64,000 nucleotides of DNA from an uncultured SAR86 cluster bacterium (GTDB lineage Bacteria; Pseudomonadota; Gammaproteobacteria; Magnimaribacterales; D2472). Shown here one piece after another: positions 17,474 through 46,793 of the stretch. The DNA is taken from the NCBI GenBank assembly GCA_902531245.1, contig CACADH010000001.1, positions 18,490-82,489 on the forward strand, given 5' to 3'. How positions within the stretch are numbered: the stretch's first letter is position 1; every line of letters starts with the position of its first letter. Made by a program: the position numbers and the translations under genes. The notes beneath the pieces are model-generated. The model searched no databases, was not told the origin of the DNA, and saw nothing but the letters and a program-made list of their open reading frames with translations.

Positions 17474-18832
17474 ATGTTTAAAAAGTTAAATTCATATATA
17501 TTTTTATTATTTTTTTCAATATTGGTTTATACATCTAATGATGAAAAGAATTCTCTTATAGAGATTTACGACAATCCAAATGACACCAATTTAATTAATA
17601 TTGTTGTTAAAGATAATATCGATATTGGCGGCAAAGTTACATCTGCTGGATCTTTGGCACTTAAAGATAACATTGCAGCAAACGATGCTTTCATAATAGA
17701 TAAATTAAAAAGAGCAAATTATTATATTCTTGGGAAAGCAAACCTATCTGAATGGGCAAACTTTAGATCTGATGATTCAGTTAGCGGCTGGTCAAGTCTA
17801 GGCGGTCAAACGAAACATTTTATAGATGATGCTTATAATCCTTGTGGCTCAAGTTCCGGATCTGCTGTTGCTGTTTCAATGGGGATTGTAGATATTGCAA
17901 TTGGTACTGAAACAAACGGATCAATTTCATGCCCATCATCTGTAAATGGAATTGTTGGTATGAAACCAACCACAGGTTTGGTTAGTAGGTCTGGTATTGT
18001 TCCAATATCATCTTCTCAGGATACAGCTGGGCCAATGGGAACAACTGTTGATATTGTTGCAAAAACATTAGAAGTTATTTCAGGATATGATGAAAATGAT
18101 CCAGCTACTTCTTTGATACCAACTAATTTTGATTTTAGTTTTTCAAATGCAACAAAGAATATTTCTCTTAAAGGCGTTCGATTAGGTTTGTTGGATTCAA
18201 AAAACTTAAATCCACAAGTTATTGAATTACATAAAAAATTAAAAGATATTGTTAACTCTTTGGGTGGTGAAGTAATTTTGATAAACGATAATAGGGATTA
18301 TCCTGGAGATGCTGAATCTTATGTTCTTCTCTACGAGTTCAGAGTAGGATTGGAAGAATATCTAAAAAATGCTAATTCATCTATGAAAAAACTTACGGAC
18401 ATAATTGATTTCAACAATGCTAATAAAGACATTGTTATGCCATATTTTGGACAAGATATTTTTTATAACTCCATCGAAAGCACTAGTTATTTAAAATATA
18501 TTTGGTCTAAATACAAAATATATAACTCTTATAAGTCTACAAGAGATCTTATAGATAAATATGATTTAGATGCTTTTATTGGTCTGACCAGAGGTCCTGC
18601 TTGGAAAATAAATTATGATGGAGGGGATTATATTGCTATGTATAACTCACTTGAATTTAGTAGTGGAGGGTATGCTGCGCATAATGGAATGCCTCATATA
18701 ACAATCCCTTATTTTGAAATTAATAAGTTTCCTGTAGGAATTTCAATTATTGGAGATCGCTGGACTGACAAGACAATAATTGGATATGCATCAGCAATTG
18801 AAAAATCAAGATATAATTTAGATACTCAATAA
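17474..18832 (+). CDS. Secreted amidase (amidase-signature family)
   Basis: 452 aa with a signal peptide, the AS motif NPCGSSSGSAVAVS...GTETNGSI, and a catalytic Ser-cisSer-Lys context. Confidence 0.85.
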   Translation: MFKKLNSYIFLLFFSILVYTSNDEKNSLIEIYDNPNDTNLINIVVKDNIDIGGKVTSAGSLALKDNIAANDAFIIDKLKRANYYILGKANLSEWANFRSDDSVSGWSSLGGQTKHFIDDAYNPCGSSSGSAVAVSMGIVDIAIGTETNGSISCPSSVNGIVGMKPTTGLVSRSGIVPISSSQDTAGPMGTTVDIVAKTLEVISGYDENDPATSLIPTNFDFSFSNATKNISLKGVRLGLLDSKNLNPQVIELHKKLKDIVNSLGGEVILINDNRDYPGDAESYVLLYEFRVGLEEYLKNANSSMKKLTDIIDFNNANKDIVMPYFGQDIFYNSIESTSYLKYIWSKYKIYNSYKSTRDLIDKYDLDAFIGLTRGPAWKINYDGGDYIAMYNSLEFSSGGYAAHNGMPHITIPYFEINKFPVGISIIGDRWTDKTIIGYASAIEKSRYNLDTQ

Positions 18833-34616: not shown

Positions 34617-34904
34617 ATGCCAAAAGGTTACTGGGTTGTAAGAGCAAATATTCATAATCAGGATGAATATTCTAAATATGTTTTAAAAGCTTCAGAAATA
34701 GTTAAAAAGAATTCTGGAACTTTCCTTGTAAGAGGCGGAAAGCAAACAGAATATGAGACAAAGGGATATAAAAGAACAGTTATTGTTGAATTCGATTCAT
34801 ATCAACATGCAATAGATTGTTATAACTCAGAAGAATATCAATCAGCTCTCAAACATGTTGAGGATTCATCTAATAGAATTTTTACTGTAGTAGAAGGAGT
34901 TTAA
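34617..34904 (+). CDS. DUF1330 domain protein
   Basis: 95 aa with PKGYWVV...Y...GTFLVRGG...VIVEFDSYQHAIDCYNSEEYQ, characteristic of DUF1330 (dimeric alpha/beta barrel). Confidence 0.8.
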   Translation: MPKGYWVVRANIHNQDEYSKYVLKASEIVKKNSGTFLVRGGKQTEYETKGYKRTVIVEFDSYQHAIDCYNSEEYQSALKHVEDSSNRIFTVVEGV

Positions 34905-36043
34905 ACTTTTTGTTTTTGAGTTTCGTCTCTATGTTTCTTTAAATATTTCATAAATGGAGTTCCGCCAGTCCCTCTTATAGTAGAACCGCCTGTACCAAAA
35001 GTATTTTTTATTTGTGCTTGTTTATGAATATAAGATGCTGCATATTCAAGATGTTGAGCTCTAAACTTTCTTATCTCTTCCAAACAAAGATTATACTCAT
35101 TCATTAATTTTTTAGATTTACTAATAAATTCTTTTGCATTTGACCTTTTTTCAACATCTTCAATCATCTTTCGATGTTTGGGAGGCATATAATCCCTCAT
35201 CTCATTTAAATAATGTCTCAAATTATCATTAGTATGATAAATACCAAGAGCTCCATCGAGTAATGGTATTATGCTGCTCTGTGCTCCAGTTTCTCCTCTA
35301 AAAAACTGTGGTTTATTATTAAACTGACCCTCATAAATTAAACCCTTTTTTAAGTCTGGATTATCTTTTGTGCCAAATATATAAGGTCTTACCCTATGAT
35401 AGTAAATATATGGATCACATTTTTCAGGCATTCTCGAAAAAATATTATTAACTTTTTTTAATGATTTAGATATTTTTTTAAGATAAATTGAAAAATCTTT
35501 TATTTTATGTTGCCTACTTAATTTTGATAACTTGATTGCTGCATCAATCGCTTCACTAGCAGCGTCTTCTATGCAAACATGGATTGTTACAAACCAGTCT
35601 TCATCAACACCTCCAAGAAAGTTATTGATTAGTGCCACATTATCTAAAGATATAGGTTCTTTGTTATCAATCTTATACCAGTTATCAAGACAATAACTTG
35701 CATAACTGAGAATAGGAGGTCTTCCAAGATATTTAGATAAAGTTACCCAGGGTTTAGCAATAACTTCAGGAAGTAATTTTTCAGGTTTATTACCACCCCA
35801 AATATATGCATGGGCAATAAAGCTTAAATGCGACATAGCAAGTTTAATTTCTTTTTCTTTTTTATTTTTTACAAGATAGTCAACAGATAAACTATTTTTA
35901 TTTAATTTTTTGATGGTAGTTTGAACCTTATTTGTTAAGAGCAACTTTGGAAGACGAGACGCAATTAAACCTATTTTTAATAACGAATCTCTCTTAGTTC
36001 TGTATTTTTTAACAGGAGGATTTCTCGGTAAAAAAGTGTACAT
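34901..36043 (-). CDS. Indoleamine 2,3-dioxygenase (IDO) family haem protein
   Basis: [61 protein letters not shown] and [19 protein letters not shown] align motif-for-motif with human IDO1, including the proximal His. The start is ambiguous (36043, 36064 or 36085). Confidence 0.85.
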   Translation of the reverse strand: [380 protein letters not shown]

Positions 36044-36129
36044 ATTTATATATATTTTATACATATAAATAGAAATAAATACCAATTTTTTATTTCATAA
36101 AAAAACTATAACTTTTTTTCAAAAAAGTG

Positions 36130-36157
36130 TTGACAAGATTTCTAGTAGGAGTAATAT
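36130..36157 (+). promoter_or_regulatory. Sigma70 promoter of the repeat-encoded RNA (TTGACA-16 nt-TAATAT), preceded by an A/T-rich UP-like tract
   Basis: Perfect -35 hexamer at 36130-36135 and a -10-like TAATAT at 36152-36157. The 12-bp palindrome AGTAATATTACT (36150-36161) overlaps the -10. Confidence 0.6.
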
Positions 36158-36164
36158 TACTAAT

Positions 36165-36385
36165 ACGGATGGCAACCGACTAGTGACCAACTGCAGACGG
36201 GAGACCTAGAGAGAAGCCAGAAGAAGAGACCGAAGGGTGAAAGCATTTACAAGAGTCGATGAGAAAAAATAGCTTGTAGATCCACCAAGGATTCAAGAGA
36301 AAGGATCCAAGGCGCTAAAGAAAATCTCACTTTAGACCCCTGAGGAATCGAACTAAGAAAACAGAGCAAGCCTCTGTTTTTTTTT
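36165..36385 (+). ncRNA. Candidate structured small RNA of unassigned family, copy 1 (~221 nt)
   Basis: It lies between its own promoter and the terminator ACAGAG-caagc-CTCTGT plus T9 (36361-36385). It is purine-rich and GC-richer than its surroundings, with no ORF above ~11 codons. Local stems: TACAAG/CTTGTA, GATCC/GGATC and CTAAAG/CTTTAG. The 5-prime end is inferred from the promoter only. Confidence 0.55.
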
Positions 36386-36477
36386 GCCTAAAATTTCTTT
36401 AAAACCATAAAACTTTATTACAAAGAAGCATTTATAAATTGGTACAATATGCCTTAAATTCAAATACATAGGGAAAT

Positions 36478-38043
36478 ATGTTTAATACTTTAGATTGGAT
36501 AATCGTTGGATTATATTGTGTTGGGATAATTTCATTAGCAACATATGTATCAAGAAATAAATCAGGTTCAGAAAGAAGTGCAGAGGATTATTTTTTAGCA
36601 GGAAGATCTCTCCCATGGTGGGCAATTGGCGCATCATTAATTGCTGCTAATATTTCTGCAGAACAAATTATTGGGATGTCAGGTCAAGGATTTGTTGTTG
36701 GTATGGCAATAGCAGTTTGGGAGTTAACTGCTGCGATAGCTTTAATTGTTATGGCTAAATATTTTTTACCTTTATTTTTAGAAAAAAAGATTTATACAAT
36801 GCCACAATTTCTAGAGCAAAGATTTGATAAAAGAGTAAGCTTAGTCTTATCTTTCTTTTGGCTGACTGTTTATATATTTGTTAATTTAACAGCAGTGCTT
36901 TGGTTGGGATCAATAGCAATTAATACACTTACAGGATTATCCCTAGTAAACGGAATGATTTTGCTTGCAGCTTTATCATTAGCATACTCTTTATCAGGCG
37001 GTCTTAAAGCTGTCGCAATGACAGATATTGTTCAAGTAGTTCTTCTTATTTTTGGCGGCTTAGCAGTTTCATACATCGCTTTAACAAAAATTGGTAATGG
37101 ATATATTGGAGATGGAATGCTTGAAGTTTATCAACAGATGCCTGAAAAGTTTGACATGATTTTATCACCAGATAATCCCTCCTATAACAATCTTCCTGGA
37201 ATATGGATTTTAATTGGAGCTGGAGTTTGGATAGGTCATTTTGCATATTGGGGATTTAATCAATACATTACACAAAGAGCTCTTGGGGCAAAATCTATTA
37301 AAGAGGCTCAAAAAGGCGTTATGTTTGCAGCTTATTTAAAACTGCTAATGCCATTGGTGATTGTTCTTCCAGGTATTTGTGCAGCTGTTCTTTTCCCAGT
37401 CCTTGAGAAAACAGATCAAGCATACCCAACTATGATGATTGAATTATTGCCAAGTGGTTTATTAGGTTTAACTTTTGCTGCTTTAATTGCAGCAGTTGTT
37501 TCTTCATTAGCATCGATGACAAACAGTATAAGTACAATTTTTACAATGGATATATGTAGATCATTTTCTAAAAATGAAATATCTCAATCTTCATTAATTA
37601 AAATTGGTAGAAGTTCAGTTGTAGGATCTATGTTGATTGCTTTAGTAATGGCAAAACCAATTCTTGGAAACTCAGACCAAATATTTCAATATATTCAAAA
37701 TTTTACCGGATTATTTACACCTGGAATTTTAGTAATATTTTTAGTTGCTTTATTTTGGAAAAAAGCGACAACTCTTTCTGTGTTAATTGCAGCAATTCTC
37801 TCTGTTGTAATGTCTGTTTTCATTCAGGCATTATTTCCAGAATTTCCTTACATCCATAGAATGGGTGCAGTTTTCTTTGCCTCTGGCTTAGGATGCTATT
37901 TAACTTCTCGAGCTCAAGGATATTTAGATCAAGAAAAGGCAATAGATTTAGCTGGGATAGATTTTTCAACTACCAAAGCCTTTAATATAAATACATTAAT
38001 AATCGTATCTGTATTAACTTTAATTTATATAACTCTAGGATAA
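36478..38043 (+). CDS. Sodium:solute symporter (SSS family, SGLT-like)
   Basis: 521 aa with 13-14 TM helices and FLAGRSLPWWAIGASLIAANISAEQIIGMSG, typical of SSS sugar transporters. Confidence 0.9.
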   Translation: MFNTLDWIIVGLYCVGIISLATYVSRNKSGSERSAEDYFLAGRSLPWWAIGASLIAANISAEQIIGMSGQGFVVGMAIAVWELTAAIALIVMAKYFLPLFLEKKIYTMPQFLEQRFDKRVSLVLSFFWLTVYIFVNLTAVLWLGSIAINTLTGLSLVNGMILLAALSLAYSLSGGLKAVAMTDIVQVVLLIFGGLAVSYIALTKIGNGYIGDGMLEVYQQMPEKFDMILSPDNPSYNNLPGIWILIGAGVWIGHFAYWGFNQYITQRALGAKSIKEAQKGVMFAAYLKLLMPLVIVLPGICAAVLFPVLEKTDQAYPTMMIELLPSGLLGLTFAALIAAVVSSLASMTNSISTIFTMDICRSFSKNEISQSSLIKIGRSSVVGSMLIALVMAKPILGNSDQIFQYIQNFTGLFTPGILVIFLVALFWKKATTLSVLIAAILSVVMSVFIQALFPEFPYIHRMGAVFFASGLGCYLTSRAQGYLDQEKAIDLAGIDFSTTKAFNINTLIIVSVLTLIYITLG

Positions 38044-45470: not shown

Positions 45471-45546
45471 GCGGGTGTGGTGTTAACGGCTAGCACAATA
45501 GCCTTCCAAGCTATTGGTACGGGTTCGAATCCCGTCACCCGCTCCA
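45471..45546 (+). tRNA. tRNA-Gly (anticodon UCC)
   Basis: 76-nt cloverleaf: acceptor GCGGGTG/CACCCGC, anticodon stem ATAGC/GCTAT with loop CTTCCAA, T-arm ACGGG-TTCGAAT-CCCGT, encoded CCA. Confidence 0.93.
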
Positions 45547-45602
45547 ATAAAAGTCCATAAAAATCTTTATAAAAAAAACTATAACTTTTTTTCAAAAAAG
45601 TG

Positions 45603-45630
45603 TTGACAAGATTTCTAGTAGGAGTAATAT
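45603..45630 (+). promoter_or_regulatory. Sigma70 promoter of the repeat-encoded RNA, copy 2
   Basis: Identical TTGACA-16 nt-TAATAT arrangement to 36130..36157. Confidence 0.6.
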
Positions 45631-45637
45631 TACTAAT

Positions 45638-45858
45638 ACGGATGGCAACCGACTAGTGACCAACTGCAGACGGGAGACCTAGAGAGAAGCCAGAAGAAGA
45701 GACCGAAGGGTGAAAGCATTTACAAGAGTCGATGAGAAAAAATAGCTTGTAGATCCACCAAGGATTCAAGAGAAAGGATCCAAGGCGCTAAAGAAAATCT
45801 CACTTTAGACCCCTGAGGAATCGAACTAAGAAAACAGAGCAAGCCTCTGTTTTTTTTT
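45638..45858 (+). ncRNA. Candidate structured small RNA of unassigned family, copy 2
   Basis: Identical to 36165..36385. No same-strand gene follows: the next gene is convergent. This argues for a stand-alone RNA rather than a leader. Confidence 0.55.
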
Positions 45859-45871
45859 GCCTAAAATTTCA

Positions 45872-45898
45872 TAAAAAAAGCAGGTAAATATACCTGCT
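45872..45898 (-). terminator. Intrinsic terminator of the prepilin peptidase gene (minus strand)
   Basis: AGCAGGTA-aata-TACCTGCT hairpin, followed on the minus strand by T7. Confidence 0.65.
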
Positions 45899-45947
45899 TT
45901 TAAGACCTAGGGGATATGAATCAAGAGGATATTCAAAGGCCTTCTAT

Positions 45948-46793
45948 TTATATGACTATAGAAAAGCCTAAAAGTTCAGAATTTTTAAAAATAAAGTAAA
46001 AAAGAGAACCTAAAATTAAAAATGATCCAAGCGGAAGGCCCTCTTTGAATTTATCTTTATAAAAAATATAAGACATACATCCCAACAATGAACCAAGAAA
46101 GAGAATCAGAGGTAAAGAAACGGGCCCAAATATTGATCCAATAGCTCCAAATAAAATAAAGTCACCGCCCCCGATACCATCTTTGTTATATATTGATTTA
46201 AAAATAAAGTTAACAATCCAAAGGAACATGTATCCAATAATAAAGCCATACAAAGAAAAAGATAAAGCAGATATATTAAATAAATATAGCTGTTCATCAA
46301 TAAATATATAAAAGAAATAATTACTCATAAAGCCTGAAAGTATTAATAAAATATTTATTGAGATGGGTAAAAAATAAAATTTTAAATCTAAAAAAAATAA
46401 AATATAGAAAAAAGCAAAAATTAGAAATAAAAATAACGAATATTCTGAAATACCATATAAAAATATTAAATAAATACCCATAAGAAAAAATATTAGTTCT
46501 GTCACTGGATAAAATATAGATATTTTAGATTTACATGATTTGCATATACCTTTTTGCAGAAGATAACCAATCAATGGGATAAGAAAAATTAATTGAATTG
46601 ATTTATTACAATTTGGACAAAATGACCTAGGGAAAAATAAATTTATTTTTTCTGATGAATGTGGCGATAGTCTATATATAACCAAAGAAGTTAAGCTTCC
46701 AATTGATAGGAATAACAACGAAAGAAGAATTAATTCAATTGTATTAAATGAATTTAGATCATTAAAATGATTAAAATTATAGATGTTGGCCAA
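45948..46793 (-). CDS. Prepilin peptidase / N-methyltransferase (A24 family, GspO/PilD)
   Basis: 281 aa with the Cys-rich loop CPNC...CKSC, multiple TM helices and the GGGDFILFG active-site motif. Confidence 0.88.
   Translation of the reverse strand: MANIYNFNHFNDLNSFNTIELILLSLLFLSIGSLTSLVIYRLSPHSSEKINLFFPRSFCPNCNKSIQLIFLIPLIGYLLQKGICKSCKSKISIFYPVTELIFFLMGIYLIFLYGISEYSLFLFLIFAFFYILFFLDLKFYFLPISINILLILSGFMSNYFFYIFIDEQLYLFNISALSFSLYGFIIGYMFLWIVNFIFKSIYNKDGIGGGDFILFGAIGSIFGPVSLPLILFLGSLLGCMSYIFYKDKFKEGLPLGSFLILGSLFYFIFKNSELLGFSIVI

Follow-up and report, generated by a model that had tools for sequence, protein, structure and literature searches.

A duplicated IMES-1 RNA gene in a SAR86 bacterium is very probably a stand-alone gene rather than a cis element

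The analysis of a 64,000-nucleotide stretch of DNA from an uncultured SAR86 cluster bacterium (GenBank assembly GCA_902531245.1, contig CACADH010000001.1, forward-strand positions 18,490 to 82,489; hereafter the window) showed that the second copy of a repeated 300-nucleotide cassette, at 45572–45871 on the plus strand (copy 2), carries a complete gene for IMES-1, a structured non-coding RNA of roughly 220 nucleotides that is already catalogued. The genomic contexts of this RNA in the host and its relatives indicate that copy 2 is very probably a stand-alone IMES-1 gene and not a cis element of the genes around it, as an earlier note made from the window alone had proposed. Neither the IMES-1 family nor its status as a gene is new. 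IMES-1 was reportedly described from marine metagenomes and metatranscriptomes in two Nature papers of 2009, by Weinberg et al. and by Shi et al., and it is reported to be among the most abundant transcripts of coastal and open-ocean metatranscriptomes. To our knowledge, it still lacks an assigned function, and it has stood unexplained since 2009.

Identity and Anatomy of the IMES-1 Genes

A repeat search of the window recovered a direct repeat of 300 nucleotides, 100% identical between 36099–36398 (copy 1) and 45572–45871 (copy 2), both on the plus strand. The earlier note had described the two copies as identical, with promoter and terminator included, and this is borne out over the full 300 nucleotides; its coordinates are also right, except that copy 2 ends at 45871 and not at 45870. 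Both copies match the Rfam family RF02034 (IMES-1) with 190.3 bits, compared with a gathering score of 81, and an E-value of 5e-43, across model positions 1–191 of 191. A full-length match at this E-value excludes chance. The family is classed by Rfam as 'Gene', and the window copies share the fold of the catalogued motif without any structural difference. A genome-wide search detected no IMES-1 copies beyond these two in the assembly, which comprises 1.11 Mb in 22 contigs and is 75% complete.

Copy 2 is organised as a compact transcription unit on the plus strand. It begins with an A/T-rich tract (an A-run, a T-run and an A-run) at 45572–45602, upstream of the −35 hexamer. An A/T-rich tract at this place is shared by all inspected copies from the three families concerned (f1, the family of the host, f2 and f4) and is possibly an UP element. 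A predicted sigma-70 promoter follows at 45603–45630 (TTGACA-16 nt-TAATAT), with 10 of 12 positions matching in the promoter scan and with hexamers that are conserved across copies, and transcription would start near 45636–45638. The RNA core, 192 nucleotides long and equivalent to RF02034 model positions 1–191, occupies 45643–45834, and the intrinsic terminator lies at 45834–45858 (ACAGAG-CAAGC-CUCUGU, a 6-bp stem with a 5-nucleotide loop and nine U; −11 kcal/mol, z = −3.2). The corresponding parts of copy 1 are the promoter at 36130–36157, the core at 36170–36361 and the terminator at 36361–36385. The promoter and terminator scan called the promoters but missed the terminators of both copies and of the neighbouring gene pilD; these hairpins were confirmed by folding. 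The near-consensus promoter and the A/T-rich tract upstream of it, as predicted, fit a high abundance of the RNA. A coding role was rejected, the only AUG frames seen by eye being unconserved and 4–19 codons long.

The structure of the RNA was evaluated on an alignment (A1) of 52 distinct IMES-1 sequences from f1, f2 and f4, onto which the Rfam structure was mapped. The cells of this structure are paired in 89.5% of cases, against 24–49% when the partners are slid, and compensatory changes on both sides occur in 28 of the 41 pairs; the observed values were reached in none of 500 shuffles. All sequences pair fully (100%) in the terminator helix, which contains one compensatory pair. The minimum-energy fold of the predicted 223-nucleotide transcript is the Rfam fold, an arrangement of multiple stems in which numerous unpaired bases are invariant. 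Both in this fold and in the centroid fold, the terminator stays a separate hairpin without alternative pairing, no formal antiterminator search having been made.

Genomic Context of IMES-1 and Its Status as a Stand-Alone Gene

The downstream context was tallied for 78 IMES-1 copies, with genes named through Pfam; 71 of these have a readable downstream flank. The first downstream feature is a same-strand protein gene in 47 copies, a convergent gene only in 18, another IMES-1 in tandem in four and tRNA-Ala in two, and the locus ends first in the other seven. Among the 47 same-strand genes, at least eight unrelated kinds are represented, including pyruvate kinase, PDH E1, SSS symporter, FAD monooxygenase, prephenate dehydratase and three unnamed open reading frames (ORFs), and they do not form the single conserved same-strand gene family that would mark a leader or riboswitch. 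In f2, the usual context, found in eight of ten copies examined, is ETF-QO on the plus strand, IMES-1 on the plus strand and a convergent DUF1285 gene; the absence of a downstream gene is therefore the norm in this family.

Furthermore, a promoter and a terminator of its own are predicted from the sequence of every copy inspected, around 58 sequences from f1, f2 and f4. The −35 hexamer is TTGACA in f1 and TTGCAA in f2, with CTTGC in f4, and the −10 hexamer is TAATAT or TATAAT. Terminators of the form ACAGAGC-loop-GCUCUG-U8-9 are present in f1 and f2, and ACUGAGCUUGCUCAG-U8 in f4. The varied downstream contexts, combined with a promoter and a terminator in each copy, argue for a stand-alone RNA gene rather than a leader, and the proposal of the earlier note is thereby supported well beyond the window.

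The surroundings of copy 2 are consistent with this conclusion. The tRNA-Gly(UCC) gene, detected by ARAGORN and Rfam at 45471–45546 on the plus strand, ends 25 nucleotides before the repeat starts at 45572, the distance previously noted. No terminator separates the two, so copy 2 can, as far as its sequence context indicates, also be reached by read-through from tRNA-Gly as a second route to its expression. On the other side, copy 2 runs head-on, as had been described, into the terminator of a convergent prepilin peptidase (A24) gene, pilD, located at 45948–46793 on the minus strand (Pfam PF06750 and PF01478). This terminator is a bidirectional hairpin at 45873–45901 that follows the pilD stop codon and can be folded on either strand (−14.8 and −14.4 kcal/mol); it serves pilD on the minus strand and, ancestrally, tRNA-Gly on the plus strand. 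The U-run of copy 2 lies 89 nucleotides from the pilD stop codon. The claim that copy 2 lacks a downstream gene on its own strand is also confirmed, with no plus-strand ORF of at least 60 amino acids starting before 48756. Copy 1, for its part, is flanked by a divergent homologue of indoleamine 2,3-dioxygenase (IDO; 34901–36085, minus strand; Pfam PF01231, E = 2.8e-91) and, downstream, by an SSS-family symporter gene (36478–38043, plus strand; Pfam PF00474), whose start lies about 92 nucleotides beyond the end of the U-run at 36385, in agreement with the spacing given before.

Two further observations concern these flanks. The 42 or so nucleotides that separate the pilD stop codon from the terminator hairpin (45902–45943) carry a stretch, AAGACCyAGGGGATATGAA-N4-GAGGATATTCnAAGGyCT, that is conserved genus-wide well above the surrounding spacer; a comparison with Rfam gave chance-level matches only, and the stretch might act as a 3′ untranslated element or as a binding site for a protein. 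Where pyruvate kinase or pheA lies 3′ of IMES-1 in relatives, these genes have, by eye, a −10-like hexamer (TAATAT or TACAAT) around 4–7 nucleotides before the start codon (L165:4115-4180, L148:3276-3330 and others), which suggests that their mRNAs are leaderless, with a −35 region that would abut the IMES-1 terminator.

The cis-acting alternative holds that IMES-1 is a leader, attenuator or riboswitch controlling, through terminator read-through, the SSS symporter (copy 1) or, in relatives, pyruvate kinase or pheA, with copy 2 as a non-functional by-product. Some of the data do weigh in its favour and against a purely stand-alone gene: a same-strand protein gene starts within about 120 nucleotides in 47 of the 71 copies, where read-through could contribute to downstream expression, and in f4 the downstream gene is always pheA, around 25–50 nucleotides past the RNA core. 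In most of f1, likewise, pyruvate kinase begins some 63–65 nucleotides past the core. However, the diversity of the downstream features tallied above, convergent genes, tandem IMES-1 copies and tRNA genes among them, the usual f2 context without a downstream gene and the Rfam type all stand against regulation in cis, as do the fully paired terminator helix, for which the fold shows no competing pairing, and the apparent −35/−10 motifs that the downstream genes possess, by eye, between the IMES-1 terminator and their own start codon. Control in cis is accordingly judged very improbable. Regulation of pilD by convergent transcription, through antisense pairing or transcriptional interference, could be imagined for copy 2 from its head-on position so close to the pilD stop codon, and is still harder to credit: two serial terminators stand on the plus strand between the copy 2 promoter and pilD, and the head-on arrangement is absent from the other genomes of the genus that were searched.

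Origin of Copy 2 and Concerted Evolution

The comparison of gene order across the host's genus, which the earlier note had suggested in order to see whether the cassette lies next to tRNA-Gly, the symporter or both, distinguishes an ancestral locus from a derived one. The 5′ part of the common order is orf730, a small ORF, IDO (minus strand), IMES-1, pyruvate kinase with PDH E1 and PDH E2 (not in all genomes), SSS, GH3 and glucokinase; the 3′ part continues with CinA-NMNAT (minus), orf284, a photolyase-related gene (minus), orf243, tRNA-Gly(UCC), an optional ORF of about 250 amino acids, pilD (minus) and GGT (minus). IMES-1 is divergent from IDO in 31 f1 copies, most of the host's genus included, and this distribution indicates that the copy 1 site beside IDO is the ancestral position. 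An IMES-1 gene after tRNA-Gly was found, among 41 genomes of the genus searched, only in the host genome (G000) and in its closest relative (G003).

The empty site is preserved in other relatives (G062, G025, G010 and G013), where the CCA end of tRNA-Gly is followed by 6–90 nucleotides and then by the AAAAAAAAGCAGG...CCTGCTTTT hairpin, the bidirectional hairpin thus being conserved without the insertion. G003 is an independent assembly, around 98% identical to the host in the region, and its left junction between tRNA-Gly and IMES-1 is identical to that of the host; its contig ends inside the repeat. Because relatives show the empty site and G003 shares the junction, copy 2 is a derived insertion, older than the split between the two genomes. 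A-runs are present at both junctions of copy 2, which hints at a microhomology-driven insertion.

The position of the symporter next to copy 1 also has a local history. In relatives, the place of the symporter downstream of IMES-1 is mostly taken by pyruvate kinase. The pyruvate kinase and PDH E1/E2 genes, present between IMES-1 and the symporter in most relatives, are absent at 36399–36477 of the window and in G003, and a tblastn search of the whole assembly, 75% complete, gave no match for either pyruvate kinase or PDH E1. The symporter adjoins copy 1 here because these genes are missing at the locus. In addition, one relative (G015, L166:15884-19159) carries a tandem duplication of the unit comprising orf243, tRNA-Gly(UCC) and an ORF of about 250 amino acids on the minus strand, resulting in two tRNA-Gly(UCC) genes.

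The two loci seem to evolve in concert. Both copies in G003 carry a C-to-U change (GACCAAC to GACUAAC) and a G-to-A change (GACGGG to GACAGG), neither of which is present in the copies of the host. These changes compensate each other, converting a C–G into a U–A pair in the short helix that closes loop L1. Copies are therefore alike within each of the two genomes and different between them, the outcome that would be expected most likely of gene conversion, or possibly of collapse by the assembler. The suggestion that gene conversion or selection acts on the pair, made from the window alone, gains support from these shared substitutions.

Older pairs of paralogues display an uneven pattern: their 3′ domains are near-identical (0–4 differences in 128 columns of A1; none between G025a and G025b, one between G061a and G061b), and their 5′ P1 domains differ at 8–20 of 72 columns (e.g., L161:12752-12983 compared with L161:17908-18139), orthologues showing the reverse. 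This suggests gene conversion of one domain or a specialisation of the P1 domain.

Duplication of IMES-1 is recurrent in the SAR86 order. Of the 72 SAR86 genomes with a match above the Rfam cut-off, about 20 hold at least two copies, as tandem pairs (G005, G019, G029 and G062), as pairs 4–5 kb apart (G004, G025 and G061) or around 10.4 kb apart (genus g13), and as inverted identical pairs separated by 280–340 kb (G086, G107 and G111).

The identity of the two copies could also be a matter of recency: copy 2 would be an intact stand-alone gene but a neutral recent duplicate, not a product of selection on dosage. Its presence in only two of 41 genus genomes makes a neutral origin possible and weighs against a dosage role, and both its full identity to copy 1 and the A-runs at the junctions, which fit a chance microhomology event, are compatible with it. 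This explanation is nevertheless considered rather unlikely, given that the insertion predates the split of two genomes whose flanks have diverged by about 2%, that copies identical within and different between genomes by shared changes fit conversion and maintenance better than drift, and that independent duplicates with intact promoter and terminator occur in many SAR86 lineages. A mis-assembled repeat in a draft genome of this kind (22 contigs, 75% complete) might instead account for the second copy or for its perfect identity. Near-identical repeats do collapse in short-read assemblers, and the perfect identity of the copies may in part be artefactual, a further point against the preferred reading; the G003 contig also breaks within the repeat. 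Nonetheless, an artefact is very unlikely, with both copies on one 246-kb contig, unique flanks that all four keep the genus-wide order, and an identical tRNA-Gly to IMES-1 junction in the independent assembly of G003.

It has also to be asked whether the direct repeats constitute a recombination module, serving excision, amplification or exchange of the intervening 9.2-kb segment. Blocks flanked by IMES-1 are known from relatives: in G061 (L162, L163; C38:7000-29398) a block of about 4 kb comprising FAD monooxygenase, orf730 and a small ORF is repeated two to three times, and in genus g13 (L182-L184) a gene block of around 10.4 kb lies between two IMES-1 copies in direct orientation. However, SSS, GH3, glucokinase, CinA-NMNAT, orf284, the photolyase-related gene, orf243 and tRNA-Gly maintain the same order throughout the genus with or without copy 2, the segment contains no integrase, and its excision would take out the tRNA-Gly(UCC) gene. 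Recombination between copies thus looks like a side effect rather than a purpose, and a dedicated module is improbable; the idea that the 9.2-kb block is mobile cargo was rejected on the same constancy of gene order. The IDO gene is missing from the repeated-block region of G061, and, to judge from both cases, recombination between IMES-1 copies seems to reshape this region. The reading preferred here remains that of an ancestral gene beside IDO and a derived, maintained second gene beside tRNA-Gly.

Distribution of IMES-1

IMES-1 was found above the Rfam cut-off in 43 of 48 genomes of f1, 14 of 15 of f2 and all 15 of f4, which makes a total of 72 of 104 genomes of the SAR86 order. None of the 149 genomes searched from other gammaproteobacterial families contained it; among the genomes searched, IMES-1 is confined to the SAR86 order. 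Family f3 gave no match above the cut-off, with weak matches (31–35 bits) in four of its 25 genomes, all from one genus.

The weak f3 matches correspond to a truncated IMES-1 relative of 158 nucleotides that lies 3′ of tRNA-Ser(UGA) and has its own promoter and terminator (L158:3030-3188, L194:2584-2742, L195:2527-2683 and L196:2725-2881). It retains a CUCGAG loop, is devoid of the P3/L3 hairpin and is missed by the current Rfam model.

The host belongs to the SAR86 clade. The symporter downstream of copy 1 shares 82–83% identity with its counterparts in SCGC AAA076-P13 and AAA168-P09, two single-cell genomes assigned to SAR86 (PMC4611503, PMC9771814). These are the nearest named relatives, and the marine origin typical of IMES-1 holds for the host. 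A search of the open-access literature, which did not cover the original 2009 papers and is no proof of absence, found no paper tying IMES-1 to SAR86.

Self-Complementary Loops

Two apical loops of the RNA carry hexamers that are kept self-complementary through palindrome-preserving substitutions. Loop L1 (AACUGCAGAC, 45662–45671, plus strand) includes the self-complementary hexamer CUGCAG at 45664–45669, and a 6-nucleotide palindrome is present here in all 52 aligned sequences, compared with 5.2 expected from shuffled loops. Families f1 and f4 have CUGCAG at this place, whereas f2 and the truncated f3 relative have CUCGAG, and the pairs that close the loop covary. In loop L3, the hexamer of the host is GUCGAU (45728–45733, plus strand), self-complementary only with G–U wobble. 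Across lineages this position shows six perfect palindromes (GUCGAC, GUAUAC, GCUAGC, GGUACC, GCCGGC and GCAUGC) together with wobble forms, the host's genus having the wobble or near-palindromic forms GUCGAU or UCGGCGA. For the loop–loop duplexes, energies between −5.9 and −14.7 kcal/mol are predicted. Since self-pairing of a hexamer within one loop is impossible, palindrome-preserving change points to intermolecular pairing or to a protein partner with two-fold symmetry.

It is tentatively proposed from these patterns that IMES-1 may self-associate via L1 and L3. Several features weigh against this proposal: L1 has just two palindrome states, which means few independent events; L3 is weak in the host's genus, with four Watson–Crick and two wobble pairs (−5.9 kcal/mol); and nine f1 sequences have a central mismatch in L3. 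Against the model as a whole stands, in addition, that no protein-coding neighbour is conserved across families. A more elaborate version, on balance doubtful, would have L1–L1 and L3–L3 pairing assemble the RNA into dimers, rings, cages or filaments at the high concentrations reported for it, with copy number (from one to at least three, tandem or dispersed, 3′ domains being kept alike by conversion) setting the dose that drives assembly.

Comparison with Known RNAs

Several known RNAs resemble IMES-1 in part. 6S RNA (RF00013) has a similar length of around 180–220 nucleotides, its own strong promoter and the character of a stand-alone trans-acting gene, and both RNAs are reported to be very abundant. 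The two differ in architecture, 6S RNA being a rod with a central bubble, whereas IMES-1 is a multi-stem junction with invariant loops. A role as a 6S substitute was rejected, as 55 of 61 relatives, G003 among them, carry canonical 6S RNA elsewhere in the genome and in no case at the IMES-1 loci. It was not found in the host genome, where it is missing because the assembly is 75% complete.

The CsrB/RsmZ sponges and the small RNAs that depend on Hfq or ProQ are likewise abundant and trans-acting, with a promoter and a terminator of their own; in contrast, their partner proteins were mostly not found in the five SAR86 genomes searched, and IMES-1 lacks conserved GGA loops. A CsrA sponge was rejected on the presence of CsrA in just one of five near-complete SAR86 genomes (the f2 one) and on the absence of a conserved, repeated GGA loop motif. 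An Hfq- or ProQ-dependent small RNA was similarly discarded, with Hfq and ProQ each in none of five SAR86 genomes, four of them at least 95% complete. In these four genomes (G002, G019, G043 and G042), Hfq and ProQ were not found and CsrA was detected only in the f2 representative. From these genomes, the usual gammaproteobacterial chaperones of small RNAs appear to be missing from the SAR86 order.

The loop organisation recalls the DIS hairpin of HIV-1, a kissing-loop dimerisation site. The likeness would lie in a 6-nucleotide palindrome within an apical loop of 9–10 nucleotides, flanked by purines (AA-CUGCAG-A in IMES-1) and closed by a short G–C-rich stem; the biology of the two is unrelated. 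GOLLD, ROOL and OLE are natural homo-oligomers made of RNA only (PMC12286853), and RNAs shorter than 200 nucleotides, with the manA and EGFOA motifs as examples, assemble as dimers, trimers, cages or filaments (bioRxiv 10.64898/2026.07.01.735769). All of these are, like IMES-1, conserved and ornate bacterial non-coding RNAs; they self-assemble, and the loops of IMES-1 have the kind of sequence signature to be expected of symmetric contacts between RNAs. The differences are that IMES-1 shares neither sequence nor fold homology with them, is around 220 nucleotides long, and that its putative self-association is read from sequence alone.

Proposed Model and Implications

In the scenario that would best account for these data, the ancestral IMES-1 gene is the one divergent from IDO (copy 1), and its 300-nucleotide cassette was copied in the common ancestor of G000 and G003, landing between tRNA-Gly(UCC) and the bidirectional terminator that this gene shared with pilD. 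The two copies have since stayed alike, most likely by gene conversion. Both would be transcribed at a high level, yielding an abundant RNA that presumably acts in trans, most likely in a dose-dependent, stoichiometric mode. L1 (CUGCAG) and L3 (GUCGAU in the host) may pair between IMES-1 molecules to form dimers or larger assemblies of RNA or ribonucleoprotein, whose dose would increase with additional gene copies, to a presumed benefit. The best guess, offered with clearly less than even confidence, is that IMES-1 is a self-associating structured RNA or ribonucleoprotein that acts stoichiometrically, its dose being set by copy number.

What is added here to the knowledge of IMES-1 is the empty-site evidence for a derived copy 2, the context tally of 78 copies, the evidence for concerted evolution of the copies, and the grounds for rejecting a role as 6S substitute, CsrA sponge or Hfq-dependent RNA. 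As a practical consequence, neither copy should be annotated as a leader or riboswitch of the symporter. SAR86, with its very small genomes, ranks among the most abundant marine heterotrophic groups. IMES-1 emerges in this group as a single-gene, self-contained transcription unit, restricted to SAR86 in the genomes searched, of which lineages repeatedly add copies; if its self-assembly were true, it would parallel the GOLLD, ROOL and OLE assemblies on a smaller scale.

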